Below, piece by piece: positions 16,179 to 38,492 of a DNA stretch of 64,000 nucleotides (position 1 is its first letter; each line of letters starts with the position of its first letter). The notes below the pieces were generated by a model. That model was not told the DNA's origin. It did not search any database and saw only the letters and a program-made list of their open reading frames with translations. The stretch is from NCBI RefSeq assembly GCF_964242715.1, contig NZ_CAXTAZ010000011.1:24593-88592 (forward strand), given 5' to 3'. The stretch comes from an uncultured Enterovirga sp. Its GTDB lineage: Bacteria > Pseudomonadota > Alphaproteobacteria > Rhizobiales > Beijerinckiaceae. Position numbers and translations under genes: made by a program.

Positions 16179-16516
16179 TCAGCAGCGGTCGTAGGTCGTC
16201 ACCTGGCCGCGCATCCGCCTGTCGCGAAGCATGAGGCGGTTCGGACCTGCCATCCGGATGGTACCCGAAGTCGTGTAACGTCCCGTGTCGTCGCTGCACT
16301 GCGCGACATAGGTGTAGGTCGCCCCGTCCTGGCGCGAGAGGCTGGTGAAGCGGCAAATGCCATTCGCAGCAAGCTCGTTCATCTGCGTCGCGCTCAATCT
16401 CATGCCGTACTCGCAGAGGTTGTCGCCCTCGCGCCAGCTGCCCTCGAACGGTAGGTCTGGCCTACCGCCGGACCGGACATCGCGAGCAGAACGAGCAGCA
16501 GGAGATCACGACGCAC
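16179..16516 (-). pseudogene. Small Cys-containing secreted protein, apparently split by a frameshift between the signal peptide and the mature part. Alternatively a leaderless 74-aa ORF 16179..16403.
   Basis: GTG 16516, after GGAAGGAAAGG, opens VRRDLLLLVLLAMSGPAVGQ..., which stops at 16400. The other frame is open from about 16507 and reads ...LPFEGSWREGDNLCEYGMRLSATQMNELAANGICRF...VAQCSDD...TYDRC, with no start codon before ATG 16403. Confidence 0.4.
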
Positions 16517-16598
16517 GGCCTTTCCTTCCCATGAACGGCCAAGATTAACGGCGACGAATGCGGCGCGAAAGAGTGTCTTACAGACGTGGCCGGTCGCC

Positions 16599-19001
16599 TC
16601 AGCCGACGCGGCGGAGATGCCGGATCGGCCGGCCGGGCGCGATCGCCTCGGCGGCCCTCGCGATGCCCTCGGCGTCGATGCCGTAATGGCGGAACAGGTC
16701 GTCGATCGTCCCGGTCTGCCCGAAGCGCTCGACGCCGAGCGCCCGGACCCGGTGACCGGCCACCGAGCCGAGCCAGGACAGGGTCGCCGGATGGCCGTCG
16801 AGCACCGTGACGAGCCCGCAATTCCGCGGCACCTCGGCGAGAAGCCGCTCCACATGCGAGCGGGCGCCGACAAAGCCGCGCTCGCGGGCGCGGGTCGCGG
16901 CGTTCCAGCCCGCATGGAGGCGGTCCGCGGAGGTGACGGCGAGGAGCCCGACGTCGCGGCGGTCCTCGCTCATCAGGCCCACGGCAGCGATCGCCTCCGG
17001 GGCCGGCGTGCCCTGGTAGGCCACGACGACCTCGGCATTGGGGCCGGGTTTCCGCATCCAATAGGCGCCGGCGATGATGCCAACGGCGAGGTCGCCATTC
17101 ATCTCGCGCTGCGGCTGGGCGAGGCTCCGGGTCGAGAGCCGGAGATAGACGGAGCCGCCTGCCGCATCCGGATCGTCCAGCGGCCCGGCATCGGGTCCGG
17201 CCTCGCGCTGCATGTGCTGGAAGGCCCACCGCATTGCGACCGAGAGTTCGTCGACGAAGGCCGGCTCGAACGAGGCGAGCCCGTCTTGCGCCATCCCGAT
17301 CAGCGGCGTCCCGATAGACTGGTGCGCCCCGCCCTCCGGCGCCAGCGCCACGCCGGACGGGGTCGCGACGAGCAGGAAGCGGGCATCCTGGTAGCAGGCG
17401 TAGTTCAGGGCATCGAGGCCGCGCGAGATGAACGGGTCGTAGAGCGTCCCGACCGGCAGCAGGCGCGCGCCGAAGAGCGAACGCGACAGGCCAAGCGCTG
17501 ACAGCATCAGGAACAGGTTCATCTCGGCGATGCCGAGTTCCATGTGCTGGCCCTTCGGCCCGAAATCCCAGGAGAAGGTCGACGGAATGCGCTCGGACCG
17601 GAACAGGTCCTTCATCTCGGCCCGGGCGAAAAGTCCGCGCCGGTTCACGAAGGGTCCTAGATTGGTCGAGACGGTGACGTCGGGCGAGGTCGTGACGATG
17701 CGGTCGGCGAAGTCCGAATCGGCCCGGGCGAGATCGTTCAGGATCAGCCCGAAACCCTGCTGGGTGGAGATCGAGGGCTGGGTCGGGACCGGAAAGGTCT
17801 CTGGCACCGGGATGACCGGCGCGGCGAACCGGCGCGGCCCTTCGCGGAAGAACGGCACCTCGGCCAGGAACCGCTCGTAATCGGCCGGGTCGCCCGGCAG
17901 GCCCTCGAACCGGTCCCATTCGTGGCCGGGCCGGACCTTCATGCCGGCCTGGAAACCCTCGAGCTGGGTCGGGGTGAGGAGGCCCGCATGGTTGTCCTTG
18001 TGCCCGGCGAGGGGCAGCCCGAAACCCTTGATCGTGTAGGCGATGAAGACGACCGGCCGGTCGTGGTCGATGCGCTCGAAGGCCTGGATCAGGTTCGGCA
18101 GGTCGTGGCCGCCGAGATTCGACATCAGCGCCTGGAGTTCGTCGTCGCTCCTGCGCTCGATCAGGGCCGTGACAGCGCCCTGGTCGCCGAGATCGTCCAT
18201 GAGGCGACGCCGCCAAGCCGCGCCGCCCTGGAAGGTGAGGGCGGAATAGAGCTGGTTCGGGCAGGTATCGATCCAGGTCCGGAGCCGCTCGCCGCCCGGC
18301 TCGGCGAAGGCGGCGTCCTGGAGCGAGCCGTATTTCAGCACGACGACGTCCCAACCGAAGGCGGCGAAGATCGCCTCGAACCGGTCGAACAGCCCCTCGC
18401 GCACCACGGCGTCGAGGCTCTGGCGGTTGTAGTCGATGATCCACCAGGTGTTGCGGAGGCCCTGTTTCCAGCCCTCCAGCAGCGCCTCGAAGATGTTGCC
18501 CTCGTCCATCTCGGCATCGCCGACCAGCGCGATCATGCGGCCCTCGGGCCGGTCGCCGGCCCAGCCGTGGGAATGGACGTAATCCTGGACGAGGCTCGCG
18601 AAGAGCGTCTGGGCGACGCCGAGCCCGACCGAGCCGGTCGAGAAATCGACGTCGTCGGTGTCCTTGGTGCGGGACGGATAGGATTGCGCGCCCCCATAGG
18701 CCCGGAAGGCTTCCAGCTTCTCCCGGGTCTGGCGGCCGAAGAGGTATTGGATCGCGTGGAAGACCGGGCTCGCATGCGGCTTCACGGCGACCCGGTCCTG
18801 CGGCCGCAGCACCGCCAGGTAGAGCGCCGTCAGGATGGTGGAGAGCGAGGCCGAGGAGGCCTGGTGGCCGCCGACCTTGAGCCCGTCGCTCGAGGACCGG
18901 ACGTGGTTCGCGTGATGGATCGTCCAGGTCGAGAGCCAGAGGATCTTGCGCCCGAGTTCGCGCAGGATCGGGAAACGCGGATCGGCTTCGTTCTTGGACA
19001 T
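16599..19001 (-). CDS. Thiamine-diphosphate-dependent 2-oxoacid dehydrogenase E1 component, homodimeric AceE-like type
   Basis: 800 aa. GGHQASSASLSTILTALYL, the ThDP motif GDAEMDEGNIFEAL...IIDYNRQSLD, and transketolase-like central and C-terminal regions. Confidence 0.85.
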   Translation of the reverse strand: MSKNEADPRFPILRELGRKILWLSTWTIHHANHVRSSSDGLKVGGHQASSASLSTILTALYLAVLRPQDRVAVKPHASPVFHAIQYLFGRQTREKLEAFRAYGGAQSYPSRTKDTDDVDFSTGSVGLGVAQTLFASLVQDYVHSHGWAGDRPEGRMIALVGDAEMDEGNIFEALLEGWKQGLRNTWWIIDYNRQSLDAVVREGLFDRFEAIFAAFGWDVVVLKYGSLQDAAFAEPGGERLRTWIDTCPNQLYSALTFQGGAAWRRRLMDDLGDQGAVTALIERRSDDELQALMSNLGGHDLPNLIQAFERIDHDRPVVFIAYTIKGFGLPLAGHKDNHAGLLTPTQLEGFQAGMKVRPGHEWDRFEGLPGDPADYERFLAEVPFFREGPRRFAAPVIPVPETFPVPTQPSISTQQGFGLILNDLARADSDFADRIVTTSPDVTVSTNLGPFVNRRGLFARAEMKDLFRSERIPSTFSWDFGPKGQHMELGIAEMNLFLMLSALGLSRSLFGARLLPVGTLYDPFISRGLDALNYACYQDARFLLVATPSGVALAPEGGAHQSIGTPLIGMAQDGLASFEPAFVDELSVAMRWAFQHMQREAGPDAGPLDDPDAAGGSVYLRLSTRSLAQPQREMNGDLAVGIIAGAYWMRKPGPNAEVVVAYQGTPAPEAIAAVGLMSEDRRDVGLLAVTSADRLHAGWNAATRARERGFVGARSHVERLLAEVPRNCGLVTVLDGHPATLSWLGSVAGHRVRALGVERFGQTGTIDDLFRHYGIDAEGIARAAEAIAPGRPIRHLRRVG

Positions 19002-23244: not shown

Positions 23245-26200
23245 ATGGATGGTGATGCGACGAGCCTGGCCGAGCCGGGATCTATCGAAACCGCGCCCGA
23301 GCGCCCGGCCGGCGACCTTCGCAGCTTCCTCTTCGCCCGGGTCCCGGCCGAGGATCTGAAGCCCTACCCGGACGAGGTCCTCGACGCCGTCGCCGGGACC
23401 GCCGGAGAGCTCTTGGCGCGGCCGCGCCAGGACGGCGCGCCCGCGATGGCGCTCGCCGACGTCGCCGTCGAGCAGGCCGGCCGCTCCCGCGAGCTCACGC
23501 TCCTCGACGTCGTCAACGACGACATGCCCTTCCTGCTCGATTCGACCCTGGCCGAACTGGACTCACGCGGCCTCGAACCGGTTCTCGTCGCCCACCCGAT
23601 CCTGGCGGTCGAGCGCGGCGAGGATGGCGGGCTCCTGCGTCTCCACGGCGAGGCGACGACGGGCGCTCCCTCGGGCGGCCGGCGCGAAAGCCTGATCCAC
23701 ATCCATCTCGACCGGATCGACGACCCGGAGGCCCGGGCCGGCCTCGTCGAGGCGCTCGGCCGGACCTATGCCGATGTCGCGGCGGTCGCCCGCGACGCGG
23801 AGGCGATGCGGGTTCAACTCGCGGGTCTCGCCGAGGATTACCGCAACAATCCGCCGCCGCTCCCGGAAGACGAGCGCGAGGAGACCTGCGCCTTCCTGGA
23901 CTGGCTGAACGAGCGCCACTTCACCCTGGTCGGCATGCGGGCCTCCCGCATCCCGGAGGGCGTGGGCACGCCGGAACCGTTGGATGGATCCGGCCTCGGG
24001 CTCCTCGCCGATCCCGAGATCCAGGTCCTGCGGCGCGGCGGGCAGTCTGTCTCGATCACGCCCGAGATCCGGGCCTTCATGGAGCGTCCGGAGGCGCTCA
24101 TCATCACCAAGGCCAGCGTGCGGTCGCGGGTGCTGAAACGAGCCTATCTCGACTATGTCGGCGCGAAGCTGTTCTCGCCCTCCGGCCGGCTCTGGGGAGA
24201 ACTCGCCATCGTCGGGCTGTTCACCGGCTCGGCCTATGCGAGCCCGGCACCCGAGACGCCCTATCTGCGCCGCAAGGTCGCCCGGGTCCTCGCCCGCGCC
24301 GGGTTCGATCCGGCGAGCTTCGCCGGCCGCATGCTGGTCGAGACGCTGGAGGATATTCCGCGCGACGAGCTGTTCCAGATCGACGAGGACACGCTCTACG
24401 GCTTCGCCCTCGAGCTTCTCCGACTGCGCGAGCATCCCCGGGTCCGCGCGCTGGCCCGGGTCGACCGTCACGACCGCTACGTCTCCGTGATCGTCTATCT
24501 TCGCAAGGACCGCGACGACAGCGCGACCCGCGACCGGATCGGCAAGTATCTGGCGGAGGCCTACCAGGGCCGCGTCTCGGCGGTGTATCCGGCCTATCCG
24601 GAGGGCGTGCTCGCCCGCACCCATTTCATCATCGGACGCGACGGCGGCGCGACGCCCGAGGTCAGCCGCGAGACGCTGGAGGCCGAGATCGCGGCGATCG
24701 CCCGGACCTGGGCCGACCGGCTCGGCGATGCCCTCGCCGGGACCGTCGGCGGCCCCCGGGCCCGCGCGCTGGCGACCCGCTATGCCGGCGCCTTCGGGGC
24801 CGCCTATCGCGAGGCCTTCGACACTCCGGTCGCCCTCGCCGATATCGAGCGGCTCGAGCATCTGAGCGAGGCGCGGCCGCGCGCGGTTGATATCTACCGC
24901 CGCGAGGGCGAGCCCGCGAGCCGGGTCGACCTGAAGCTGTTTTCGCGGGGCGCGCCGTTGCCGCTCTCCGAACGCGTGCCGCTGCTCGAGCGGCTCGGCT
25001 TCCGGGTCGTGAACGAGCGGACCTACCGGATCGCCGGCGAGGGCGAGAACCGAGCCTGGCTGCACGACATGGCGCTCCAACGCGCGACCGGCCAGGATCT
25101 CGACATCGCCGCAGTCGAAGGTCGTCTCGAAGCGGCGCTCCTGGCTGTGTTCCGCGGCATCGCCGAATCGGACCGTTTCAACCAGCTCGTCGTCGAGGCC
25201 GGGCTCGGTTGGCGCGAGGCGGCCCTGTTCCGCGCCTACGGCCGCTACCTCCGGCAGATCGTGATCCCCTACAGCCAGGATTACCTCGCCGATGTCCTCG
25301 CCCGGCACGGCGAGATCGTGGCCGCGATCGTGGCCCTCTTCACGGCCCGGTTCGACCCGAAGGAGGCCGATGAGGCCCGGGCCGGCCGCGAAAGCGAGGC
25401 ACGGGAGCGGATCGCCGCCCTGCTCGCGGCCGTGACGAGCCTCGACGACGATCGCATCCTGCGCCGCTTCCTGAATCTCGTCGATGCGACGCTCCGGACG
25501 AACTTCTTCCAGCTCGGCCCGGACGGGCTGCCGCCGACCATCATCGCCTTCAAGTTCGAGGCCTCGGCCGTCGACGCGATGCCGCGGCCAAAGCCGCTTT
25601 ATGAGATCTTCATGAACTCGCCGCGGGTCGAGGCCTTGCATCTCCGCTTCGGCAAGGTCGCGCGCGGGGGCCTGCGCTGGACCGACCGGCCGGAGGACTT
25701 CCGCACCGAGGTGCTGGGCCTCGTGAAGGCGCAGCAGGTCAAGAACGCCGTGATCGTGCCGGTCGGCGCCAAGGGCGGGTTCTTCCCGAAGCTCCTGCCG
25801 CCGGCCTCGGACCGGGCCGCCTGGCTCGCCGAGGGGACGGAGGCCTACCGGCTCTTCGTCCGCACCCTCCTCGACCTCACCGACAATCTCGACGGCGCAA
25901 CCGTGGTCCACCCCGCCGATACGGTGCGGCGCGACGGCGACGACCCCTATCTCGTGGTCGCCGCCGACAAGGGTACGGCCACCTTCTCCGACATCGCGAA
26001 CGCGATCTCGCTCGAGCGCGGCCACTGGCTCGGCGACGCCTTCGCGTCCGGGGGCTCGAACGGCTACGACCACAAGCAGATGGCGATCACGGCCCGGGGC
26101 GCCTGGGAGGCCGTGAAGCGGCACTTCCGCGAGATCGACGTCGACATCCAGAAGGAGCCGGTCACGGTCGTGGGCGTGGGCGACATGTCGGGCGACGTGT

Positions 26201-28050
26201 TCGGCAACGGCATGCTGCTCTCGCAGAGCGTGAAGCTCGTGGCCGCCTTCGACCACCGCGACATCTTCATCGACCCGGACCCGGACGCGGATCTCGCCTT
26301 CCTGGAACGCGAGCGTCTCTTCGCCCTCCCGCGCTCGAGCTGGCAGGATTACGACAAGGGCCTGATCTCGGCCGGCGGCGGCGTGTTTCCGCGCTCCGCG
26401 AAGTCGATCCCGCTCTCGCCCGAGGCCCAGAAGGCCCTGGGCCTCGGGCAGAGCGAGATCGCTCCGTCCGAGCTGATGAGCGCGATCCTGCGCGCACCGG
26501 TCGGCCTCCTCTTCTTCGGCGGCATCGGCACCTATGTGCGGGCCTCAGACGAGACCGATGCGGCCGCCGGCGACCGCGCCAACGACCCGATCCGGATCGC
26601 CGGCCGCGAGATCCGGGCCCAGGTCGTGGGTGAGGGCGCCAATCTCGGCATGACCCAGCGCGGCCGCGTCGAGGCGGCCCGGGCGGGGATCCGGCTGAAC
26701 ACCGACGCGATCGACAATTCGGCCGGGGTGAACACCTCGGACATCGAGGTGAATATCAAGATCGCGCTCTCCGTCCCGGAGCGCGACGGCCGTCTCGCTC
26801 CGGACGACCGGAACGCGCTCTTGCGGGAGATGACGGACGAGGTCGCGAGCCTCGTCTTGCGCAACAACTATCTGCAGACGCTGGCGCTTTCCCTGTCGCA
26901 GCGGCGCGGGACGGCTGATCTCGGCTTCATGTCCCGCCTGATGCAGGTGCTGGAAGGGGAGGGCCGGCTCGACCGCCCGATCGAATTCCTGCCGGACGAG
27001 GCCGCGCTCGCGGCCCGGCGCCAGGCCGGCGAGGGACTGACAAGGCCGGAGCTCTCGGTGCTCCTCGCCTATGCCAAGCTCGCCTTGCACGACGAACTTC
27101 TCGCCTCATCCGTGCCGGATGACCCGTATCTGTCGCGCGAGCTCGACCGCTACTTTCCGGCCGCGCTTCGGGACCGCTTCCCGGATTCGGTTTCGGATCA
27201 TCGGCTGCGCCGGGAGATCATCTCCACGCAACTCGCGAACGCCATCGTGAACCGGGGCGGCCCCGCGATCGTCACCCGCCTCGTCGACGACACGGGCGCC
27301 GACGCCACCACCATCGCGGCCGCCTATGCGGCGACGCGCGATTCTTTCGGCCTCACCGACCTCTATTGGGGAATCGACGCGCTCGACGGCAAGGTCCCGG
27401 GCGAGCAGCAGCTCGCGCTCTATGCCGCGGTCCAGGAGCTGATGCTGTCCCGCATCGTCTGGTTCATCCGCAACGTCGATTTCAAGACGCGCTCGCTCGA
27501 CGACGTCGTCGGGCAATATGGGGCCGGCATCGCCGAGGTCTCGGCGGCGCTGGACTCCGCCCTTTCAGCGGCACGACGCGAGGCCTGGACGGCCCGGTCC
27601 GAATCCGTCGCCAGCGGCGGCGTGCCGGCCGGCCTTGCCCGCCGCCTCGCCGCACTCCCGGACCTCGCGGCCGCGCCGGACATCGTGCTGGTCGCTCGTC
27701 GTACCGGCCGAGCGATCACCGACGTCGCCGCGACGCATTTCGCGGTCGGCGCCCTGTTCCGACTGGGCGAGCTCGCCGAGGCTGCCTCCACGATCCCGGT
27801 CCTCGACCATTACGACCGCCTCGCCCGCGACCGCGCCATCGATTCCGTGGCCGAAGCTCACCGCCGCCTGACCTCGGAGGTGGTGACGGGTGATGCGACC
27901 GGCCCCGACGCCCTTTCGGCCTGGCAAGCTATCCGCGGCGGCGAAGCCGACCGTATCCGGGGCGCCGTGGAAGCCATCGCGGCCTCCGGGCTTACCGTAT
28001 CGAAGATGACGGTCGCGGCGAGCCTCGTGGGGGATCTGGCCAAGGCTTGA
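23245..28050 (+). CDS. gdhB: NAD-specific glutamate dehydrogenase, large (about 180 kDa) class
   Basis: 1601 aa. The central catalytic region reads [42 protein letters not shown]. Confidence 0.95.
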   Translation: [1601 protein letters not shown]

Positions 28051-29142: not shown

Positions 29143-29351
29143 GGAAGAACTTTCGTAGGGCGCGGACATGGCTGCGACGTCGGGCGAAAGCCGGAAGGCA
29201 GCTTCGGTTCCGACGGGTGATACTGGCCTTGCGGGGCGGGCGTCATTCGAGGGCTGCATCGTCTCCGGACGCCGCCGAGGCCGATGCGTTCAGGATCGTT
29301 GCCCGGCCAGCCACCTCGTCGGAAGATATCGGACAGGTCGGAGAGAAAGCC

Positions 29352-29435
29352 ATGCGAACCGGGGCTGTCGTGACGATTGGGCTTAGCCTTCTCTCGGCTG
29401 CTCCCGCCGCGGCCCAGCAACCCTACGAGGGTTAA
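29352..29435 (+). other. 27-codon mini-ORF consisting almost entirely of a signal peptide (possible gene remnant)
   Basis: GGAGAG RBS 8 nt upstream. MRTGAVVTIGLSLLSAAPAAAQQPYEG, then a stop. Confidence 0.25.
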
Positions 29436-29477
29436 CTCCGCTGCGCCGGCCCGTGATCCTGCAGCACGAGCGATCGG

Positions 29478-29684
29478 TTACGTCGCCGCCTTCGGGCAGG
29501 TGACGACCGCGCCGGCCTGGCTGCCGATCAGCTGCCGGTCGGCTTCGTCCAGGTGATGCTCGCGCACGAAGAGCGGCCACGACGGGGCTGACGTCTCGCC
29601 GGCACCCGTCCAGGCGATCGTCTCGGCATATTCCGCCATCATCTCGTCGATCTCTGCTGGGCCGATCACGCGGTGTCCTGTCAT
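29478..29684 (-). CDS. Hypothetical small acidic protein (68 aa)
   Basis: MTGHRVIGPAEIDEMMAEYAETIAWTGAGETSAPSWPLFVREHHLDEADRQLIGSQAGAVVTCPKAAT. The composition is protein-like and I recognise no motif. It is divergent from the TIR gene. Confidence 0.4.
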   Translation of the reverse strand: MTGHRVIGPAEIDEMMAEYAETIAWTGAGETSAPSWPLFVREHHLDEADRQLIGSQAGAVVTCPKAAT

Positions 29685-29846
29685 GTTGCACTGCAGCAAA
29701 GCCGCGCCGACCGCTCCGTTCCACGCCCGGTCAGCATGCCGCAGCCCCGGATGGGAGCAGCCGACCCGCAAGCTTGACCGTATCGCGGGTGCGTTCTACC
29801 CAAAAGAGGTTCCGCTCCCGGCACCGGAGAGAGGCTCCAGGCGCCC

Positions 29847-32800
29847 ATGTCGCGTCTCTTCATCAGCCATTCCAGCCAGAACAACGCCGAAGCGGCGGCT
29901 TTGCTCAAATGGCTGAGGGAGCAGGGCTGGGACGACGTCTTCCTCGACATCACGCCCGATCGGGGCATCGCGGCCGGCGAGAAATGGGAACGGTCGCTGA
30001 ACGAGGCGGCCTCGCGCTGCGAAGCGGTGCTGTTCCTCGTCTCGCGACCCTGGATCGCCTCGCGCTGGTGCCGCAAGGAATATGATCTTGCCCGCCGGCT
30101 GAACAAGCGGCTCTTCGGCGCTCTGGTCGAGGTCATCCCGGTCGCGGAGCTGCCCTCCGAGGTGACCGAGACCTTCCAGATGGTCGACCTCGCCTCCGGC
30201 CAGGATCACCGCATGATCCGGACGGAGCTCCCTCGGACGCATGAGGAGATCCATGTCACCTTCTCGAACGAGGGCCTGGCCCGCCTGAAAGACGGCCTTG
30301 CCCGGGCCGGGCTCGATCCGCGCTTCTTCGCCTGGCCGCCGGACGCCGATCCGGGCCGGTCGCCCTATCGCGGTCTGAAGGCGCTGGAAGCCGAGGATGC
30401 CGGCATCTTCTTCGGCCGCGATGCGCCGATCGTCGAGGGCCTCGACATGCTGCGGGGCCTTGCGGAGGCCGCCGCGCCGCGCCTCTTCGTGATCATCGGG
30501 GCGTCTGGGGCCGGGAAGTCGTCCTTCCTCCGGGCGGGCCTCCTGCCGCGGCTCGCGCGCGACGACCGCACCTTCCTGGCCCTGCCGGTGATCCGGCCCG
30601 AGGGCGGGGCCGTGACCGGCGAGAGCGGCCTCCTGCCGGCGCTCGAAGCGGCGCTCGCGGCCCGCGGCATCCCGCAATCCCGCGCCGCGATCCGGACCGC
30701 CCTCGCCGGCGGGGCCGCGACGCTGAAGCCTTTGCTCGCCCGGCTCGCGGGCCGGGCCCAAACCGTGATGCCCGATGCCGAGGGCGCGGCGAAGCCGCCG
30801 ATGGTCACGATCTCGATCGACCAGGCCGAGGAGCTGTTCCGGCAGGATTGCGAGGGCGAGGAGTTGCTGGCGTTCGTGCGCGACCTCGTCACCGCCGACG
30901 ACCCGGCCGTGATCGTGCTGTTCACGATCCGGTCGGATTCCTACGACCATCTCGAGACCGCGAAGCCGCTGGAAGGCCTGCGCCAGCGTACCCTACCGCT
31001 CCTGCCGATGCCGCGCGGCGCCTACCAGACCGTGATCGAGGGCCCGGCGGCCCGCCTCGCGGGGACCAACCGGCCGCTCGCGATCGAGGCGCGGCTGACC
31101 CAGCGGCTGCTCGAGGATATCGAGCGGGGGGGCGGCTCGGACGCGCTGCCGCTCCTCGCCTTCACGCTCGGCCAGCTCTATCTCGATTTCGGCGGCGGCG
31201 GCGCGCTCCGGCTAGAGGATTACGAGGAATTCGGCGGCATCCGGGGCGCGATCGAGGCCGCGGTCCGGCGAGCCATGGTGGCAGCCGACCACGATGCCCG
31301 CCTGCCGCGCGATCCCGCCTCCCGCCTCCTCCTGCTCCGGCGCGGGCTGATTCCGTGGCTCGCCAATGTCGACCCGGAGACCGCGAGCCCGCGACGGCGA
31401 CGGGTGCCGCTCTCTGACATCCCGAGGGAGGCCGAACCGCTCATCCGTCTCCTGGTCGAGCAGCGGCTCCTCTCGATCGACCGGTCGGTCCTGCGGGACA
31501 CCGCGGGGGAGCGGGTCGAGACCACGATCGAGCCGGCGCACGAAGCGCTGCTGCGGCAATGGGGCTTGCTGCGGGGCTGGCTCGAGGAGGATTTCTCCGC
31601 CCTCACCATCCTGGAGGCCGTGAAGCGCGCCGCCCGTGACTGGGTTGCGAATGCGCGAGGCCAGGACTGGCTGAACCATACCGGCACCCGCCTTGCCGAG
31701 GCCGAGACGATCGCGGCCCGCCAGGACCTCGCCGGCGACCTCGGCGAGACGGCGCGAGACTACCTCGCGGGCTGCCGCACGCGCGACGACGCTGAGGAAG
31801 AGGCCCGCCTGCAGCGGATCGAGAACGAGCGCCGGCTGGCCGAAAGCCAGCTTCGGCTCGCCGAGGCTGACCGGCTGGCCGCGGAGGAAAAGGCTGCGGC
31901 AGCGCAGGCCCGGGCCGCGGCCTCGCGCCGTTTTGCCCGGCTCACGATCGCGGCCACGGTCGCGGTCGCGATCGGCCTCGCCGCCGCCGGCGGTTTCGCG
32001 GCGCTGAACCAGATGCAGAAGCAGCGCACCGCCGACGCGCTCGCCTCGGCCGAGGCTGGGCGCTGGGTGGCGAAATCCCAGGCCGAGCTCCGCGACGACG
32101 ATCCGGTCGAGGCGATGCGCAGCGCGCTCCGGGCCTACCGGCAGCTGCCGCGGGAGGATACGCGCTCGGCGCTCCTCGCCGCCCTCCTGGATATCCCGAA
32201 CCTCGCCGGCACGGTGAAGCTCCCCGATGGTCCCGCCCAGGCCCTCGCCTGGCTCGACGGCGGCACGCTCGGCTTCGCCTCGCAGGGCGGGGTCCTGCGC
32301 CGGATCCCGGTGCCGGGCCAGCCTGGCGACCGCACATTCGACGCGGCCGCCTGGCCCTCGCCGCCGGTCGAAGACCTGAAGGCGGGCCATGCCTTCGTGC
32401 GAGCCATCCGGCGGGTCGCGCCGGACAGGGTCGTGGCCGCGCTCTCGGACGGCTCGGTCCTGGCCATCGGGCGGTCGGACCCGAAGGCGGTCGAGCTCGT
32501 CCGCCCGGGCCCGAACACGGTTGTCGACGCGGCTGCGATCGGCCGGACCGGCGCCCTCGTCGCATCCGCCGCCAACGGCGAGGGCCTGAGCCTCGCGACC
32601 TGCGACGGGCAAAGCTGCACGACACGCCGCCTGAGCGAAGGTCCAGCCCTGTCGGTCGCCATCGACGAGAGCGAGACCAAGGTCGCGATGGGCGACGAGG
32701 GCGGCAACGTCTTCGTCTTCGAGCCGTCGGGTGCGCCGCATGGCCGGACGGTCGCGCTCGGCTCGCCCGTGACCTCGATCGGCTTCGGCGAGGGCGGCGC

Positions 32801-34124
32801 CTGGCTTGCCGCCGGCACGGCGTCGGGCGAGGCCGTGATCGTCGACCCGGTTCAGGGGAGCGTGGTCTTGCGGGCGGGCATGTCGACGCGACCGGTCGGC
32901 AGCGTGGCCGCTTCGCCGGTCGGGACGAAGGCGGCGTTCAGCTGCGGCGAGACGACGGCCTGCCTCTGGTGGCTGCGCCGGTCCGAGGCGTCGGGCGTCG
33001 CGTCGGCGGGATCGACGCGCCTGCCGGGCCAGCGCGGCGTCGTGGTCGCGACGGCCTGGTCGCCCGCGGGCGACCGGCTCGCGACGGCCTTCTCCGACGG
33101 CATCGTGCGGGTCTGGCGATCCGACGCGACGGGACAGGTCGGCGCGGCTTTCCGTCCCGAGCGGATGGTGAACCTGCTTCGCGTCCAGGCGAGCCCGGAC
33201 GGCAGCCTGGTCGCGGCCGGCGGCGGCGACGGCGCCGTCAGGATCTGGGACCGGCGCACCCATGCCCTGCGACGGGTGCTGCACAGGCCGGGCGGCGAGT
33301 TCGAGACGCGCTCGGTCGCCTGGGCGCCCGACGGCCGCATCGCGGCGGTCCATGACGACGGGGCCGTCGCGATCTGGCCGGCAAGCGGCGGCGACGGCGA
33401 GCCTGTCGTGAAACGCTGGGACGCGAATGCCAACCCGGGCCTGGCCTGGACCGGTGGCGGGCGCATGCTCGCCGTCGCGCTGGGAGATGGCCGCATCGCG
33501 CTGCACGACCCCGCGACCGGACAGGACGCGTTCCTGCCGGCGATCGGTCCCGGCACGGATCCCTGGGGCCTCCTCGCGAGCCCCGACGGCGCCTCGCTCG
33601 TCGCGACCTACGTCCGGGGCGAGATCCGCCGCTGGCAGCCCGCCGCGAAAACCCACACCGTTCTACGCTCCGCGGCCGACAGGCCGGCTGGCGAGCGCGG
33701 CGGTCCCGAAAGCCTGTCGGAGAGCCCGGACGGCCGCCGGCTCGCGGTCACGGCGGACGACGAGGACGTCCGGGTGCTCGACCGCAGCGCCGGCACTTGG
33801 ACGACGCTCCGGACGGAATCGCCGCAGACGAAGGCGGTCGCCTTCAGTCCCGACGGCGCTCGGCTCGCGGCGCTCGGCGTCGATGGGCGGCTCTATCTCT
33901 GGACGGTCGCGGCGACCGGGTTCGAGCGACACCTGTCGTTGCAGCCCTCCGCCGGTCCGACGCAGCTCGGTTCGCGGCGGCCGGCGAACGGGCTCAGCTG
34001 GGCCGGTCCGGACACGCTGGTCGTCGCGACATCGGGCGGGACGCTGCAGGCGATCGGGTTTGACGAGGCGGCCTGGGTGCGGCGGGCGGAGACGCTCGAT
34101 CTCGCCGTCGCGCCGGGTCCGTGA
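29847..34124 (+). CDS. TIR domain - STAND-type P-loop NTPase - coiled coil - hydrophobic helix - WD40-like beta-propeller protein (1425 aa)
   Basis: TIR: MSRLFISHSSQNN...VLFLVSRPWIASRWCRKEY (Glu78 at 30078-30080). NTPase: SPYRGLKALEAEDAGIFFGRD, Walker A GASGAGKSS (30498-30521), Walker B ISIDQAEELF (30810-), LPLLAFTLGQLY. Coiled coil at about aa 645-695. Hydrophobic helix LTIAATVAVAIGLAAAGGFAAL (31938-32006). C-terminal repeats have the form SPDG..LA....DG.VR.W. Confidence 0.9.
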   Translation: MSRLFISHSSQNNAEAAALLKWLREQGWDDVFLDITPDRGIAAGEKWERSLNEAASRCEAVLFLVSRPWIASRWCRKEYDLARRLNKRLFGALVEVIPVAELPSEVTETFQMVDLASGQDHRMIRTELPRTHEEIHVTFSNEGLARLKDGLARAGLDPRFFAWPPDADPGRSPYRGLKALEAEDAGIFFGRDAPIVEGLDMLRGLAEAAAPRLFVIIGASGAGKSSFLRAGLLPRLARDDRTFLALPVIRPEGGAVTGESGLLPALEAALAARGIPQSRAAIRTALAGGAATLKPLLARLAGRAQTVMPDAEGAAKPPMVTISIDQAEELFRQDCEGEELLAFVRDLVTADDPAVIVLFTIRSDSYDHLETAKPLEGLRQRTLPLLPMPRGAYQTVIEGPAARLAGTNRPLAIEARLTQRLLEDIERGGGSDALPLLAFTLGQLYLDFGGGGALRLEDYEEFGGIRGAIEAAVRRAMVAADHDARLPRDPASRLLLLRRGLIPWLANVDPETASPRRRRVPLSDIPREAEPLIRLLVEQRLLSIDRSVLRDTAGERVETTIEPAHEALLRQWGLLRGWLEEDFSALTILEAVKRAARDWVANARGQDWLNHTGTRLAEAETIAARQDLAGDLGETARDYLAGCRTRDDAEEEARLQRIENERRLAESQLRLAEADRLAAEEKAAAAQARAAASRRFARLTIAATVAVAIGLAAAGGFAALNQMQKQRTADALASAEAGRWVAKSQAELRDDDPVEAMRSALRAYRQLPREDTRSALLAALLDIPNLAGTVKLPDGPAQALAWLDGGTLGFASQGGVLRRIPVPGQPGDRTFDAAAWPSPPVEDLKAGHAFVRAIRRVAPDRVVAALSDGSVLAIGRSDPKAVELVRPGPNTVVDAAAIGRTGALVASAANGEGLSLATCDGQSCTTRRLSEGPALSVAIDESETKVAMGDEGGNVFVFEPSGAPHGRTVALGSPVTSIGFGEGGAWLAAGTASGEAVIVDPVQGSVVLRAGMSTRPVGSVAASPVGTKAAFSCGETTACLWWLRRSEASGVASAGSTRLPGQRGVVVATAWSPAGDRLATAFSDGIVRVWRSDATGQVGAAFRPERMVNLLRVQASPDGSLVAAGGGDGAVRIWDRRTHALRRVLHRPGGEFETRSVAWAPDGRIAAVHDDGAVAIWPASGGDGEPVVKRWDANANPGLAWTGGGRMLAVALGDGRIALHDPATGQDAFLPAIGPGTDPWGLLASPDGASLVATYVRGEIRRWQPAAKTHTVLRSAADRPAGERGGPESLSESPDGRRLAVTADDEDVRVLDRSAGTWTTLRTESPQTKAVAFSPDGARLAALGVDGRLYLWTVAATGFERHLSLQPSAGPTQLGSRRPANGLSWAGPDTLVVATSGGTLQAIGFDEAAWVRRAETLDLAVAPGP

Positions 34125-34181
34125 TGGACCTTCCGGCCGGCCGTTTCGGGCGATAGGATTTCGAGGCGGAGGGAGCGAGCG

Positions 34182-36014
34182 ATGGCGGACCGGCATCTCG
34201 GATCAGCGGCAACCCTTCTGGCCGGCGTCTTCTTCGCCCTAGCGCTGTGCGGCTCGGCCGGGGCGGAGGAGGACGACGCCTCCCCGACGGCCCGCGTAGT
34301 CGTCGCCCTTCCGGCCGAAGCGGGAGCGTGGCGCAGCCGCAGCCAGCCGGTCTACGATCCGAAGGCCCAGGCGCTCGTCCGCAAGCTCTACACGGTTTGG
34401 GACCCCACGCCGTCGCGGGGGCTCGACTTCACCTGGCTGCCGGATCGTCCGGCGGATGGCGAGGCGGAACGCATCACCGGCCAGGGGCGGCTCGTCTGGC
34501 GGGCCGCCGGGAAGCCCTCCTACGATCCGGCCTCCTTCGTGGCCGAGTATCGCGGCCGCATGCAGGCCGGTCGTCCGGACGGCGTCGGGAGCTATCGCGA
34601 TCGGCAGGGCCTGTCCTACGAGGGTGGCTGGGTCGGCGGGCGCCCGGCCGGCACCGGCGCGATGAAGCTCGGCAACGGCGCCGAATATGCCGGTCGGTTC
34701 GAGCATGGTGGCGCGGAAGGCCTGGGCCGGTTCTACGACGTCGACGGCGAGATCTTCGAGGGCCTGTTCCGGCGCGGGCTGCGGGAGGGACGGGGCCGCA
34801 CGATCCTGCCGGGCGGCGGCGCCTACCAGTCGCGATGGGTGGCCGGCGAGGAGGTCGCGAATTCCCGCAAGCTCCGGGTCGCGCAGCTCGGCCCCGGAGT
34901 CGCTGCGAATGACGACATCCGGCTCGGCATCACGGTCGATCGCGTCGATGATCCCGACCTCCTGCAATACACGACCAGCAATGCCGAGAGCGGACTCCTG
35001 ATCCGGCCGAGCAAGGGGCGGCTGATGGATGCCTGGAAGGGCAATGGCGAGATCCAGTTGACCGAGCGCGAGGAGGGGATCACCGGGCGCGGCAGCTACG
35101 GCATCTTCGCCTTCGCGGCCGGCGACATGCCGCCTCTGTCGCTCGTCTTCGAGGTGCAGAACCGGGCGGCTGCCCCGGTCCGGGTGCGCGGGGCCTATCT
35201 CGACGTGGATGCGAGCAATACCGATCTTCAGCCCGCGATCCAGATGAGCGGCGGCTCCTCGGGCGAATGCAGCGCGCGGGCCCGTTCCGATTTCTCCCCG
35301 CGCTACGAACTCGAGAATTTCGGCTGGGGTGCGGCGGAAGGCGCCAAGCTCCGCTTCAACTTCGTGGCGCCACGCTCGAACGCCGCCTCGCCGTCTGCGA
35401 TCACGAAAGAGGTCGGCAATGTCACGACCGTCAGCAAGGTCGATTTTGAGGCCGAGCTCCGGGCCGCCGGGGTCAAGACCGATATCCTGAAGCAGCGGGC
35501 CCAGAGCGGCGGCATCGCCTGCAAGTCCAAGGGCAATCCCGGCGCCTGCCTCGCCGAGATCGTGGCGACCGGCTATTTCGGCACCCTCGGGCGTCTCGTT
35601 CGGCTCGATGAGCGGGACATCGTCCTCCACGCGGGCGGCACGCTCGATTACGGGTGGCGGACGCAAGGTGGCGAGCAGAAGACCCGGTCATCTCCCTTCA
35701 ACGCGCGGCTCCTGCTGGCCCGCACCCCGGTCGAGGCGGAATGCGGCGAGGGGGCCGAGAAGGAGGCCGTCGGCAAGAAGCCGCTCGAGTTCCGGCTCGA
35801 CCAGACGCGCTACCGGCTGCCGGTCGCCTTCGAGCGCACCGTCCGGGCAGGCGGCAGCGCGCGCTACACCGTCACCTTGCAGGCCCCGAAATCCTCCGAA
35901 CACAAATTCAAGGTCGTGCTGCAGACGGCCGATGGCCGGCAGATCGCCTCGCGGCCGATCGCGCTCACCTATTTCCGGCCGAACCGCCTGACGGACCAGT
36001 ATCTGAACCAGTGA
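34182..36014 (+). CDS. Secreted MORN-repeat protein with a large uncharacterised C-terminal domain (610 aa)
   Basis: GGAGGGAG RBS. Signal peptide MADRHLGSAATLLAGVFFALALCGSAGA. MORN-like units: YRGRMQAGRPDGVGSY, YEGGWVGGRPAGTGAM, YAGRFEHGGAEGLGRF, FEGLFRRGLREGRGRT. About 370 aa at the C-terminus carry no motif I recognise and include four Cys. Confidence 0.85.
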   Translation: MADRHLGSAATLLAGVFFALALCGSAGAEEDDASPTARVVVALPAEAGAWRSRSQPVYDPKAQALVRKLYTVWDPTPSRGLDFTWLPDRPADGEAERITGQGRLVWRAAGKPSYDPASFVAEYRGRMQAGRPDGVGSYRDRQGLSYEGGWVGGRPAGTGAMKLGNGAEYAGRFEHGGAEGLGRFYDVDGEIFEGLFRRGLREGRGRTILPGGGAYQSRWVAGEEVANSRKLRVAQLGPGVAANDDIRLGITVDRVDDPDLLQYTTSNAESGLLIRPSKGRLMDAWKGNGEIQLTEREEGITGRGSYGIFAFAAGDMPPLSLVFEVQNRAAAPVRVRGAYLDVDASNTDLQPAIQMSGGSSGECSARARSDFSPRYELENFGWGAAEGAKLRFNFVAPRSNAASPSAITKEVGNVTTVSKVDFEAELRAAGVKTDILKQRAQSGGIACKSKGNPGACLAEIVATGYFGTLGRLVRLDERDIVLHAGGTLDYGWRTQGGEQKTRSSPFNARLLLARTPVEAECGEGAEKEAVGKKPLEFRLDQTRYRLPVAFERTVRAGGSARYTVTLQAPKSSEHKFKVVLQTADGRQIASRPIALTYFRPNRLTDQYLNQ

Positions 36015-37776
36015 CGTCACCCGCCTCGCGCCCACGCAGCAGCGCGTTGCCGAGCTCGAACAGGTTCGGCAGCGGGATCAGCCGCACCGCGAAGGTGCCC
36101 TGGCGGAAGCGGCGCAGCTCGAGAAGGGCGCCTGTGCCCCGGGGCGAGGTCTGGTCGAAGAGGAAGTTTCCGAGGGACGGAAGCAGCGCGTATTCGCCGC
36201 CCTGCGGCGCCTCGATCCGGGCGGCGGCACGGTGGCTATGCGCGCCGATGATCGCGCCGACCCCGCAGCGATGCAGATTGCGGGCGGCCTCGTATTCGGC
36301 CGGGCCGATATCGGTCGCGTATTCGACGCCCCAATGCACGAAGGCGACGAGGGGCGGGCGCGCGGCCGCTCGGCAGAGCGTGTCGAGATCGCCCTCCCGC
36401 ACCACCGGGAAGCCGGAGCGGTCGTTCCGGCCGACGAAGTTGAGCGGGATGATCCGGACAGGCCCGAGATCGGCGACCCGTCCGTGCGGCATCGGCATGA
36501 TCCCGGTTCGCTCCAAATGGGCGATCGTCTCGCGGTAGCCGTCACGACCGAGATCGAAGCTGTGATTGTTGGCGAGGCCGGCGGCCTTGACGTTCATGGC
36601 CTTCAGGATGGGCAAAGCGAGCCCGGCATGGATCGCGTGGAGATGGTCGCCGATGCCTTCCGGCGGTTCGGTCAGCAGCACGCCTTCGAGGTTGAGGACG
36701 AGCGGCGCCCCGCCGGTCAGGGTCCTGACCCGCGCCGCGATCGCGTCGGCGATGGCGGGCGTGGCGAGCGCCTTGGTTAGCCAGCGCCCCGGAAAGGCGT
36801 CGCCACCGAAGACGAGGACCTCCTGGTCCGGATAGGCGTAAGGGAAGGCCTCGGTCTCGGTCGCATAGACCGAGACGAGGTAGCTCGTCGTGCGCGAGGC
36901 ATGCGGCACGTATTCGACCGAGTTCCGGCTCGCGATCACGGTCCCTCGGGACCCGCGCGACGCCTGTAAGCTCATCTGGACATACTGCGCGCCCCGCGAA
37001 TCCATGTGGTCCGACGAGACGAGTCGCTCGATCGCGGCCGGATCCTCGGCCGCGATCACGTTCAAGGTCTCCTGGTCGCGGGCGAGGCTCGCGACCACCG
37101 GGAGGTAGTGGGAATAGTCGGTCGATTGCACGACGAGCGTGCCCGGTCCGGCAAGCTTCTCCAGGAGCGCCGTCGCCCGGTCCCACTCGGCCCGGCCCGC
37201 CCGGAGCGAGATCGCGATCGGGACGATCTTCGCGTCGGGAAAGAAGTGCTTCGCGAAGGGCAGCAGGGCCGCGATGCCGTGCTCGCGGTCGAAGAGATCC
37301 GAAACCTCGAACAGCTCGCTATCCGCGACGAGCGTTCCAACCGCATCGCGATCGGTCGCGAGCCTCCCGAACACGGTGTCGAAGTCGTGCGCGCTCGTCG
37401 CAAGGGGCTTGCGGCTTCGGTTGAAATGGTCTGGCGACAGGATGACGATCCGGTCGTAGCGGTTGCCCTGGGCGGCCCAGAAGCCCCGCGCGATCAGGTC
37501 CGCCGCAAGCAGGTGGTGCGGGACGGTGATGCCGGTGACGGTCGGCGGCCGCGCCGGCGCAGGTTGCCGCTCCGCCGCGATCGCGGCCAGGAAGGGCTGC
37601 GGGTCGGTGTACAGGGAGGGGAAGGAGGCGGTTTCGGCCGGCTGGGCCTGTCTGTCAGCCGAGTCGTGTCCGGGAGCTCCTTCTCCCGCGAGAGGAGAAG
37701 GAGCCGCGCAGAGGCCGAAGCTGGTCGTCGTGAGGGCGAGGACCAGCCCGAACCGGAGCGCCGCCCAGCGCCTCAA
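35965..37776 (-). CDS. Exported fusion protein: Memo/AmmeMemoRadiSam-B-like domain plus CapA (PGA_cap) metallophosphatase-like domain
   Basis: TTG 37776 overlaps the livF stop (TTGA). Signal-like MRRWAALRFGLVLALTTTSFGLCAAP. Memo-like: ITVPHHLLAADLI...IVILSPDHF...STDYSHY. CapA-like: VLNLEGVL, LANNHSFDLGRDGYRETIAHL, VHWGVEY, IIGAHSHR, LPSLGNFLFDQ. Confidence 0.8.
   Translation of the reverse strand: MRRWAALRFGLVLALTTTSFGLCAAPSPLAGEGAPGHDSADRQAQPAETASFPSLYTDPQPFLAAIAAERQPAPARPPTVTGITVPHHLLAADLIARGFWAAQGNRYDRIVILSPDHFNRSRKPLATSAHDFDTVFGRLATDRDAVGTLVADSELFEVSDLFDREHGIAALLPFAKHFFPDAKIVPIAISLRAGRAEWDRATALLEKLAGPGTLVVQSTDYSHYLPVVASLARDQETLNVIAAEDPAAIERLVSSDHMDSRGAQYVQMSLQASRGSRGTVIASRNSVEYVPHASRTTSYLVSVYATETEAFPYAYPDQEVLVFGGDAFPGRWLTKALATPAIADAIAARVRTLTGGAPLVLNLEGVLLTEPPEGIGDHLHAIHAGLALPILKAMNVKAAGLANNHSFDLGRDGYRETIAHLERTGIMPMPHGRVADLGPVRIIPLNFVGRNDRSGFPVVREGDLDTLCRAAARPPLVAFVHWGVEYATDIGPAEYEAARNLHRCGVGAIIGAHSHRAAARIEAPQGGEYALLPSLGNFLFDQTSPRGTGALLELRRFRQGTFAVRLIPLPNLFELGNALLRGREAGDVTGSDTGPSGGSAGNR
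37676..37704. repeat. REP-like 11-bp perfect inverted repeat embedded in coding sequence
   Basis: GCTCCTTCTCC-CGCGAGA-GGAGAAGGAGC. On the minus strand it encodes APSPLAGEGAPG, just after the signal segment of the Memo/CapA protein. Confidence 0.5.
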
Positions 37777-38492
37777 TGAAAGGCCCCGACGCCGAGATGG
37801 CGCTCGATCGAGGCCTGGTCGCTCCGGAGTAACGGACTCGGGCCGGACCAGACGATGCGGCCCCGGTCCATGACCACCGTGTCCTGGGCGAAGTCGAGGG
37901 CGCGCTCGATCTGCTGCTCGACGAGGACGATCGTCATGTCGCCGCTCTCGGTCAGCCGGTGAAGCGCCGCCATGAGTTCGTCGCAGATGACCGGCGCCAG
38001 GCCCTCGAGCGGTTCGTCGAGGAGGAGGACGCGCGGCCGGCCGAGCACGGTCCGGGCGGTCGACAGCATCTGCTGCTCGCCGCCGGAGAGGAGCGAGGCG
38101 GTCTGCCGGCGCCGTTCTCCTAGCCGCGGGAACATCGCATAGGCCTCGACCAGCGCCGAGCGGGGCCGTTCCTTCAGGCCGGCGACGAGGTTTTCCTCCA
38201 CGGTGAGCGAGCGGAAGACGTCGCGGGTCTGCGGCACGTAGCCGAGACCCCGCCGGGCGCGCTCGGGCGTGGACAGCGCCGCGACATCCTGCCCGTCGAG
38301 GAGGATTTGACCCTCATGCCGGCGGGCGAGGCCCATCAGGGCGGCGAGCAGCGTCGTCTTGCCGACACCGTTCCGGCCCAGCACGGCGAGGCGCCCGCCC
38401 GCCGCCACGGCGAAGCTCGCCTCCTCGACAATCTGCGTCGCGCCGTAGCCGGCGGTGAGCCCTGTCACCTCGAGCGAGGCGGCGCCGCTCAT
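37773..38492 (-). CDS. livF: Branched-chain amino acid type ABC transporter ATP-binding protein (LivF-like)
   Basis: GRNGVGKTTLL, LSGGEQQML, LLLDEP. Confidence 0.9.
   Translation of the reverse strand: MSGAASLEVTGLTAGYGATQIVEEASFAVAAGGRLAVLGRNGVGKTTLLAALMGLARRHEGQILLDGQDVAALSTPERARRGLGYVPQTRDVFRSLTVEENLVAGLKERPRSALVEAYAMFPRLGERRRQTASLLSGGEQQMLSTARTVLGRPRVLLLDEPLEGLAPVICDELMAALHRLTESGDMTIVLVEQQIERALDFAQDTVVMDRGRIVWSGPSPLLRSDQASIERHLGVGAFH

Follow-up and report, generated by a model that had tools for sequence, protein, structure and literature searches.

The stretch analyzed here, referred to as the window, comprises 64,000 nucleotides (nt) of contig NZ_CAXTAZ010000011.1 (positions 24,593 to 88,592 of the forward strand) in the NCBI RefSeq assembly GCF_964242715.1 of an uncultured Enterovirga sp. 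It contains three adjoining genes, which encode a TIR-nSTAND1-WD40 protein with a single predicted transmembrane (TM) helix, a predicted secreted protein combining a MORN array with a C-terminal module (hereafter the C-domain), and a predicted secreted fusion of Memo and PGA_cap domains. Homologs of these three genes recur side by side in several proteobacterial lineages, and we classify the set as a STAND/TIR system with a predicted new topology and new dedicated partners. The features of the locus are as follows, with protein positions in amino acids (aa):

29847-34124, + strand: TIR-nSTAND1-TM-WD40 protein, 1425 aa, with Pfam matches to TIR_2, nSTAND1 and WD40
29859-30200, + strand: TIR domain, aa 5-118 (TIR_2, E = 6.9e-16, 59.3 bits), with the WCxxE motif in SRWCRKEYDLA
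30363-31661, + strand: nSTAND1 NTPase, aa 173-605 (PF20703, 226.7 bits, E = 9.3e-67), with Walker A GASGAGKSS
31947-32003, + strand: single predicted TM helix, aa 701-719, IAATVAVAIGLAAAGGFAA (Kyte-Doolittle 19-mer mean 2.02), preceded by an Arg-rich stretch
32214-34121, + strand: WD40 beta-propeller region, predicted periplasmic sensor; start approximate, Pfam propeller matches at aa 939-1360
34125-34181, + strand: intergenic gap of 57 nt from the STAND stop to the MORN gene start, with a ribosome-binding site (RBS) at 34168-34175
34182-36014, + strand: gene for the MORN and beta-sandwich protein, 610 aa, ATG start; product predicted to be secreted
34182-34265, + strand: predicted signal peptide, aa 1-28, cleavage predicted after SAGA (sequence, AlphaFold2 [AF2] model and family N-termini)
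34299-34886, + strand: extended MORN beta-hairpin array, aa ~40-235 (AF2, Foldseek and Pfam MORN)
34893-36011, + strand: C-terminal module, aa 238-610, modeled by AF2 as tandem immunoglobulin (Ig)-like beta-sandwiches with a helical insert at aa 423-472
35965-37776, - strand: Memo and PGA_cap fusion enzyme, predicted to be secreted; open reading frame (ORF) of 603 aa, start possibly downstream (Memo 77 bits, PGA_cap 86.7 bits)

An earlier note, made from the sequence alone, had singled out the 610-aa ORF as a secreted MORN-repeat protein and a candidate partner of the TIR-STAND protein encoded ahead of it, and its observations on this ORF proved correct in all checkable details. The MORN gene starts 57 nt past the TIR-STAND stop on the same strand (29847-34124, then 34182-36014) and has an RBS of its own, GGAGGGAG, which ends 6 nt ahead of the ATG. 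On the + strand, a scan of 29300-38000 detected no site in the gap that resembles a terminator or a sigma-70 promoter, and the gap RNA does not fold better than shuffled sequences (z = +0.99), in keeping with the absence of a terminator hairpin reported in the note. Co-transcription of the two genes, which the note considered plausible, is compatible with a gap in which no such site was detected, but it is not obligatory, since Enterovirga rhinocerotis keeps the intact genes at two loci, with the STAND gene on another contig. A protein of 'uncultured Enterovirga sp.' matches the window MORN protein at 100% identity.

Exact-protein look-ups, pattern scans of genomes and metagenomes, a plasmid search and tblastn of the window's three proteins against the loci yielded 41 loci (L numbers below), and the counts that follow were made once duplicates had been removed. 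The pattern scans, performed with a single peptide pattern, contributed 9 genome and 14 metagenome loci, and the exact-protein look-ups provided the wider sample. A gene encoding an nSTAND1-TM-WD40 protein adjoins the MORN/C-domain gene in 24 of the 27 loci with enough flank, mostly immediately upstream and on the same strand. The two genes are then 0-170 nt apart, and in L036 the stop codon of the STAND gene overlaps the start of the first MORN gene. The adjacency of TIR-STAND and MORN homologs across genera, on which the earlier note had staked the proposed partnership, is therefore borne out, and the pairing itself stands. The two-gene composition assumed in the note does not, since a third member, the Memo-PGA_cap gene, adjoins the MORN/C-domain gene in all 34 loci with any downstream flank, nearly always in convergent orientation.

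These loci come from both Alpha- and Gammaproteobacteria (Enterovirga, Methylovirgula, Rhizobium, Xanthobacteraceae, Paracoccaceae and Candidatus Kentron). The same trio was reached from Memo homologs outside the MORN match list (L030, L031), from distant proteins consisting of the C-domain only (L032, L033, L034) and from a Rhizobium johnstonii STAND homolog of 41% identity (L038), and it is also present in the gammaproteobacterial symbiont Ca. Kentron (L035). Gene order varies: the STAND gene is divergent in L032, L034 and L039, all four genes are co-directional in L031, and in L014 and L015 the convergent pair of MORN and Memo genes is duplicated back-to-back, with the STAND gene downstream. 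The genes flanking the trio are unrelated between lineages. Given this recurring adjacency, the differing flanks, the rearranged orders and identities of 26-60%, neither chance adjacency nor a single recent transfer can account for the pattern of linkage. L014 and L015 are the two most divergent loci, one of them from a Paracoccaceae metagenome-assembled genome, and both encode a secreted WG_beta_rep (PF14903) protein (11913-12818 and 13197-14264, respectively) between the second MORN gene and the DUF4062-type nSTAND1-WD40 gene; secreted WG-repeat proteins accompany some MORN/C-domain genes.

The third component, Memo-PGA_cap, has a signal-like N-terminus (LRRWAALRFGLVLALTTTSFGLCAAPS). Its Memo half carries the invariant His/Asp motifs VPHH, DH, EHG, STDxSH and H..D, and its PGA_cap half keeps a metallophosphoesterase-type set (GD, N.E, NNH, HWG and GAHSH); with these motifs, the protein is probably an active enzyme. 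The n-regions of several family members contain RR (window 37690-37776, P0088, L007, L014 and L027), as in MTTRRALLAGG in P0088 and LRRWAAL in the window, which hints at a folded metalloenzyme exported by the twin-arginine translocation (Tat) pathway. In the window, the Memo-PGA_cap ORF overlaps the 3' end of the MORN ORF by 50 nt (35965-36014), and no terminator-like site lies between the two ORFs. Comparable 3' overlaps are found in L003 (44 nt), L034 (49 nt) and L036 (95 nt), the span being 7-95 nt with L033 included, and this recurrent tail-to-tail arrangement could provide antisense or transcriptional coupling of the MORN and Memo-PGA_cap genes. Across the same genomes, Memo-PGA_cap is the most conserved component (53-59% identity), followed by the MORN protein (about 45%) and by the parts of the STAND protein (28-38%), of which the propeller is the least conserved.

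Databases name the Memo-PGA_cap gene 'AmmeMemoRadiSam system protein B' or 'poly-gamma-glutamate synthesis protein'. Both names are misleading in this context, because AMMECR1, radical-SAM and CapB/C genes are absent nearby and the constant neighbors are instead the MORN/C-domain and STAND genes. The protein shares with AmrB a Memo domain (PF01875) with conserved His/Asp and a remote match to human MEMO1 (E = 3e-4), but it differs in being predicted to be exported and fused to PGA_cap, and the Pfam tables for the approximately 30 neighborhoods examined contain neither AMMECR1 (AmrA) nor radical-SAM (AmrS) genes that would indicate an AmmeMemoRadiSam system. Likewise, it shares with CapA/PgsA a PGA_cap domain (PF09587) with metallophosphoesterase-type motifs (GD, NH, H and HxH) and a predicted extracytoplasmic location, but here this domain is fused to Memo and lies in the context of a STAND module rather than in a capsule operon; assignment to poly-gamma-glutamate capsule synthesis (CapBCA/PgsBCA) was rejected, with no CapB/CapC (PgsB/PgsC) genes in the neighborhoods examined.

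The protein encoded upstream of the MORN gene shows the layout of effector, NTPase and repeat sensor of the nSTAND1 conflict systems (TIR_2, PF20703 and WD40). The catalytic Glu of the WCxxE motif is kept in the aligned homologs that bear a TIR domain, as is the P-loop, and NADase activity of the TIR domain may be predicted on this basis. All 14 STAND homologs examined present exactly one strongly hydrophobic segment of ~19-23 residues between the NTPase and the propellers, preceded in every case by an Arg/Lys-rich stretch; the helix sequence itself is not conserved. Following the positive-inside rule, and given that TIR and STAND domains need NAD+ and ATP, the N-terminal half would be cytoplasmic and the WD40 half periplasmic. 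This predicted topology, along with the signal-like N-termini seen in both partner families, backs the supposition of the earlier note that a periplasmic propeller would share its compartment with the exported MORN protein. The effector is variable, with the TIR domain replaced by a DUF4062-type domain in L014 and L036 and by an unassigned domain in L022, and such an exchange of effectors around an unchanging core is a typical trait of STAND conflict systems (PMC8195603).

Ten further TIR-nSTAND1 relatives (P0356, P0359, P0363, P0365, P0379, P0415, P0420, P0433, P0436 and P0461) also have an Arg-rich stretch and one TM-like helix before the sensor, which in these proteins is of the WD40, TPR or FGE-sulfatase type. 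Membrane anchoring with an extracytoplasmic sensor may thus be general to the TIR-nSTAND1 clade, beyond the subgroup associated with MORN proteins. The STAND protein of L030 lacks a TIR domain and has its NTPase divided over ORFs of 202 aa and 1014 aa (13514-17160), and it is probably a frameshifted or decaying copy; two phage-type integrase genes flank that locus.

P0356 and P0359 match the window protein at 67-68% identity over the TIR-nSTAND1 half, and their C-termini give only repeat-level WD40 matches to the window propeller (70-76 bits); the gene contexts of both are not known. In the STAND proteins that bear partners, the chassis is 29-56% identical and the propeller is alignable end to end, with scores against the window of 275 bits for Methylovirgula, 196 for R. 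johnstonii, 159 for L036 and 130 for Rhizobium leguminosarum HA464_32405. Two relatives, Sinorhizobium pK101b and HA464_32450, whose examined flanks contain neither MORN/C-domain nor Memo genes, gave no match or 45 bits. Elsewhere the chassis is fused to sensors of the TPR or FGE-sulfatase type, in each case behind a TM-like helix. It is the type of propeller, and not the TIR-STAND chassis, that tracks the secreted partners, and this modular pattern of fusion is to be expected if the secreted partners work with the propeller.

The N-terminus of the MORN protein (MADRHLGSAATLLAGVFFALALCGSAGA, followed by EEDD) displays, by eye, a basic n-region, a hydrophobic h-region and A-x-A, and it resembles a type I signal peptide. 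The AF2 model places an N-terminal helix with a low predicted local distance difference test (pLDDT) score at residues 11-22, and a hydrophobicity heuristic identified a clear hydrophobic N-terminal segment in 54 of 65 homologs, the others being borderline or having a mis-called start. The cleavable-looking signal peptide of the earlier note keeps the status of a prediction. A lipoprotein reading was dropped, since 'LALC' is no canonical lipobox.

The AF2 model of the 610-aa protein, based on an alignment of 65 family members (mean pLDDT 84.5), contains a continuous beta-hairpin array, with strands from about aa 49 to 220 and pLDDT >90 over aa 40-230. The only Pfam match on the protein is PF02493, a marginal one at 23.6 bits versus a cut-off of 22.5, and the same family is annotated on its homologs in precomputed tables. 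Foldseek searches of the PDB with the full-length model returned as best matches MORN1 (6t6q, 6t69), junctophilin, MORN4 and radial-spoke arrays (E about 1e-8, probability 1.00), all confined to the MORN array. The protein thus combines a sequence-model score above the gathering threshold with the beta-hairpin fold of the MORN family, and the four or more units (at least four) previously read at aa ~125-215 form part of a longer modeled array (aa ~40-235). Eukaryotic MORN arrays are elongated platforms for the binding of proteins or membranes. The window protein shares their beta-hairpin array (MORN1, junctophilins, MORN4 and RSP1/10; target TM-score up to 0.6-0.8 in Foldseek), but differs from them in being bacterial and predicted to be exported, in having a beta-sandwich module after the array and in its location within a STAND cluster.

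The C-terminal module is modeled as all-beta sandwiches at ~246-600, with the helical insert at 423-472 bearing C447 and C456, which are invariant or nearly invariant across the family. The Cys motifs listed in the earlier note (GECSAR, GIACKSKGNPGACLAE and EAECGEG) were all located in the sequence, and its statement that these ~370 aa hold no nameable motif was upheld by every search. The region has no match in Pfam (E<=0.1), NCBIfam or PADLOC, and none among PDB sequence profiles (best E = 0.87). When the module was modeled separately (pLDDT 79), Foldseek retrieved from the PDB only generic sandwiches of the Ig, fibronectin type III (FN3) and macroglobulin (MG) types, none of them significant (best E = 5.8e-4 at probability 0.33), and no match in BFVD at E<=1e-3. 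A thioester protein of the complement C3 or alpha-2-macroglobulin kind (CGEQ) was considered and rejected, as the motif here is CGEG, without the Gln, and its Cys is Q or E in P0059 and P0060; Foldseek matches of the module to the C3 MG domains were weak (probability 0.16-0.44).

A word-indexed search with the 610-aa protein identified 71 homologous clusters, almost all of ~600 aa, with members in Enterovirga, Methylovirgula and soil metagenomes. The family grew to 723 clusters at 50% identity, 203 of them with E<=1e-30, in an exhaustive search with a C-domain profile, which revealed two architectures: the MORN array followed by the C-domain (~600 aa) and a signal peptide followed by the C-domain alone (~385-430 aa). 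The occurrence of the second architecture points to the C-terminal region of 370 aa as an autonomous, widespread and unnamed module. In L032, a separately called MORN ORF (220 aa, 66.6 bits, four repeats) is possibly a frameshifted part of a MORN-C-domain gene.

Loci harbor one to four tandem MORN/C-domain paralogs (two in L021 and L031, four in L033, and four in L036 at 44-51% identity). Several members carry C-terminal PAN/Apple domains (PF00024, PF14295 and PF08276 in P0057-P0059, P0063, P0070, L030 at 11109-13454 and L031 at 6555-8882), which supply the scaffold of MORN array and C-domain with another extracellular binding module. Such paralog expansion and PAN/Apple fusions would suit a binding component that is diversifying. 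Neither the full-length and C-terminal AF2 models nor their Foldseek matches show a catalytic fold, and with a MORN array joined to beta-sandwiches the 610-aa protein is best read, from these models, as a non-enzymatic exported binding scaffold. Searches of phage genomes by tblastn returned no homolog, and a phage-derived decoy origin of the MORN protein is unsupported. In L036, the module with four MORN genes has as its direct neighbors an ABC transporter gene and a LanC-like/DUF4135 (lanthipeptide synthetase-type) gene (14494-16633).

In Rhizobium, the module resides on plasmid-type replicons amid insertion sequence (IS) elements, toxin-antitoxin genes, an integrase, CHAT genes and two further TIR-STAND genes. 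A region of about 25 kb on pRL31b3 of R. leguminosarum bv. trifolii 31B (CP050083.1, L039/L041, about 25.9-51.3 kb) holds three TIR-STAND genes (HA464_32405, 32430 and 32450) and a CHAT-domain gene. Of the three TIR-STAND genes, 32405 alone is accompanied by a C-domain gene (32400) and a Memo-PGA_cap gene ('amrB', 32395). A set of CHAT and GH108/peptidoglycan-binding genes occurs beside the module in R. johnstonii (L038) and beside a TIR-STAND gene without partners in Sinorhizobium (L040). Together with the swapping of effectors, the mobile, multi-STAND context in Rhizobium hints at a role in defense or conflict.

On this evidence, we consider a functional partnership of the MORN protein with the TIR-STAND protein highly probable, and we propose, with moderate confidence, that the three genes encode an envelope-spanning STAND module that signals from the outside in, with the MORN protein as its exported binding adaptor. 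The first component would be an inner-membrane protein in which a cytoplasmic effector (TIR here, DUF4062 or other domains in relatives) and nSTAND1 are connected by one TM helix to periplasmic WD40 propellers, the second would consist of one to four secreted MORN/beta-sandwich paralogs, and the third would be the secreted Memo and PGA_cap (metallophosphoesterase-like) enzyme. Both secreted proteins would act in the periplasm together with the propellers, the MORN/sandwich protein as a ligand- or target-binding adaptor (co-receptor) and Memo-PGA_cap by generating, processing or removing the cue. A change in the periplasmic complex would then pass through the TM helix to nSTAND1, and nSTAND1 oligomerization would switch on the TIR domain, leading it to consume NAD+ or to synthesize a signal nucleotide. 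In its most novel form, which we put forward tentatively, the module would be a transmembrane receptor complex akin to NOD-like (NLR) and Toll-like (TLR) receptors, in which the periplasmic propellers of the TIR-STAND protein, diversifying secreted MORN/Ig-like co-receptors and the secreted Memo-phosphoesterase detect an extracytoplasmic threat or cue and elicit NAD+-based signaling or cell death.

Several observations weigh against this proposal. The window module is chromosomal and has native GC, between genes for a large NAD-dependent glutamate dehydrogenase (GDH), an aldo-keto reductase and an ABC transporter, and there is no obvious island: a horizontally transferred island was rejected, with GC flat at about 0.66-0.76 and no tRNA nearby. 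No PADLOC model matches the MORN or the Memo-PGA_cap protein, and neither these searches nor the tblastn searches of phage genomes provide a direct link of the partners to phage defense. The topology of the STAND protein is a prediction from hydrophobicity and the positive-inside rule, and the physical contact between propeller, MORN protein and Memo-PGA_cap is something we infer from gene content. In the type strain of E. rhinocerotis, the MORN, TctC and Memo/PGA_cap genes lie at one locus without an adjacent STAND gene (L001, SNZR01000011). The STAND ortholog, full length and 63% identical, is found on another contig (L037, SNZR01000013), and the cluster has evidently been split by rearrangement with all three genes intact. 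Two short contigs (L007 and L027) also show no adjacent STAND gene. Judging by these three cases, the MORN and Memo-PGA_cap proteins may, as a pair, have a role independent of the STAND protein. NadE and Porin_2 genes precede the STAND gene in both L037 and L005, and the presence of an NAD+ synthetase (NadE) beside a TIR protein may be coincidental or relevant.

A role of its own for the pair underlies the main rival explanation, a guard arrangement in which the MORN and Memo-PGA_cap proteins would serve an envelope function of their own as a self-sufficient periplasmic pair of adaptor and enzyme, while the TM-STAND protein would do no more than monitor this pair. The pair might modify or degrade a surface polymer or lipid head group, and the MORN protein would be the guarded target or a negative regulator, the loss or modification of which frees the TIR domain. 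The constant association of the two genes, which persists intact without an adjacent STAND gene in E. rhinocerotis, L007 and L027, and the high conservation of Memo-PGA_cap, with its invariant catalytic motifs, speak for such an arrangement. Nevertheless, E. rhinocerotis still encodes the STAND ortholog, and among the genomes examined none is known to carry the pair without a STAND gene (L007 and L027 being judged by contig only). Moreover, all contexts sampled from distant C-domain or Memo homologs again held an nSTAND1-WD40 gene, and tandem diversification of the MORN/C-domain proteins against a single Memo gene suits recognition better than housekeeping. We regard the guard arrangement as rather unlikely.

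Less probable still is a non-immune function, in which the module would be an outside-in regulatory receptor for an environmental or periplasmic cue that is processed by Memo-PGA_cap and converted into NAD+-derived signaling or growth control. Such a function would agree with the chromosomal, native-GC site in the window, the lack of PADLOC matches for the partners, the presence of the module in the symbiont Ca. Kentron and the NadE genes near the STAND gene in L005 and L037. It is at odds with the exchange of effectors among TIR, DUF4062 and other domains, with the fast divergence of the sensor region and the expansion of secreted-protein paralogs, and with the setting of the Rhizobium copies amid IS elements, toxin-antitoxin, integrase, CHAT and further TIR-STAND genes, traits that are the usual hallmarks of conflict systems. 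The possibility that the MORN gene merely adjoins a functionally unrelated TIR-STAND gene could appeal to its own RBS and to its separation from the STAND gene in E. rhinocerotis, but it is already contradicted by the comparative data. The two genes adjoin in 24 independent loci, which represent six or more named lineages, have differing flanks and rearranged orders, and were reached no matter which protein of the trio served as the query. The partners also go with one type of propeller, and identities of 26-60% with differing flanks argue against one recently transferred element. We regard fortuitous neighborhood as very improbable.

The proposed envelope-spanning module resembles several known systems in part. 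With Avs and bNACHT proteins, and with the nSTAND1 conflict systems described by Kaur, Burroughs, Iyer and Aravind (PMC8195603, PMC7159879; the nSTAND1 clade is named in PMC8195603), it shares an N-terminal effector (TIR), a central STAND NTPase and a C-terminal repeat sensor, with a variable effector on a conserved core. Those Avs and bNACHT proteins that have been characterized act singly, in the cytosol, by direct binding of phage proteins, whereas here a TM helix splits the sensor from the NTPase, the sensor is predicted to be periplasmic and there are two conserved secreted partners; PADLOC returned weak ThsB-like TIR matches and no Avs model, and assignment to Avs was rejected. The possibility that TM-bearing NACHT proteins respond to periplasmic signals is the subject of a passing remark in the supplementary discussion of 10.1101/2022.07.19.500537. 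The TIR domain weakly matches ThsB models (PADLOC E = 3e-5; NCBIfam ThcB4 28 bits versus a cut-off of 220), but these scores fall far below the cut-offs, the TIR domain is fused to STAND and there is no ThsA-like (SIR2/SLOG or Macro) gene among the window neighbors, so the locus was not assigned to Thoeris.

Toll and TLR complexes employ secreted co-receptors (Spaetzle, MD-2 and CD14) and, in Drosophila, secreted enzymes, and these accessory proteins prepare or present the ligand. The module would resemble them in its predicted extracytoplasmic repeat sensor, single TM helix, cytoplasmic TIR domain and secreted accessory proteins, and it differs from them in having an N-terminal TIR domain, a type II orientation, a STAND NTPase between the TIR domain and the membrane, and WD40 repeats instead of leucine-rich repeats. 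The likeness is an analogy of layout, with no sequence relationship beyond the TIR domain. The earlier note was aware of no described defense system with the TIR-STAND and MORN composition, and we likewise found none in PADLOC or the searchable literature. Literature on MORN, Memo, STAND and TIR proteins and on periplasmic TIR-WD40 anti-phage systems yielded no description of the module, with the proviso that a prior mention in Burroughs et al. 2019 J Biol Chem (PCAD-Memo superfamily) cannot be excluded.

The surroundings of the module in the window are of a housekeeping kind, with an NAD-specific glutamate dehydrogenase of 1601 aa (PF05088, ACT and helical domains; 23245-28050) encoded about 1.8 kb upstream.

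The results presented here provide a first functional context for the unnamed beta-sandwich domain family (723 clusters at 50% identity) and for bacterial exported MORN proteins, and they place the Memo domain in a testable setting distinct from its AmmeMemoRadiSam annotation. The module can be tested in cultured, tractable hosts, including R. leguminosarum bv. trifolii 31B (pRL31b3, HA464_32395-32405), R. johnstonii and Enterovirga rhinocerotis DSM 25903. To our knowledge, characterized bacterial STAND/NLR-like and TIR defense proteins sense their triggers in the cytoplasm. If the module does possess a periplasm-facing sensor with dedicated secreted proteins, it would bring monitoring of the cell envelope within the scope of bacterial NLR biology, provide a parallel to Toll-type receptor complexes, by convergence or ancestry, and constitute a new layer of bacterial innate immunity that acts ahead of cytoplasmic entry.

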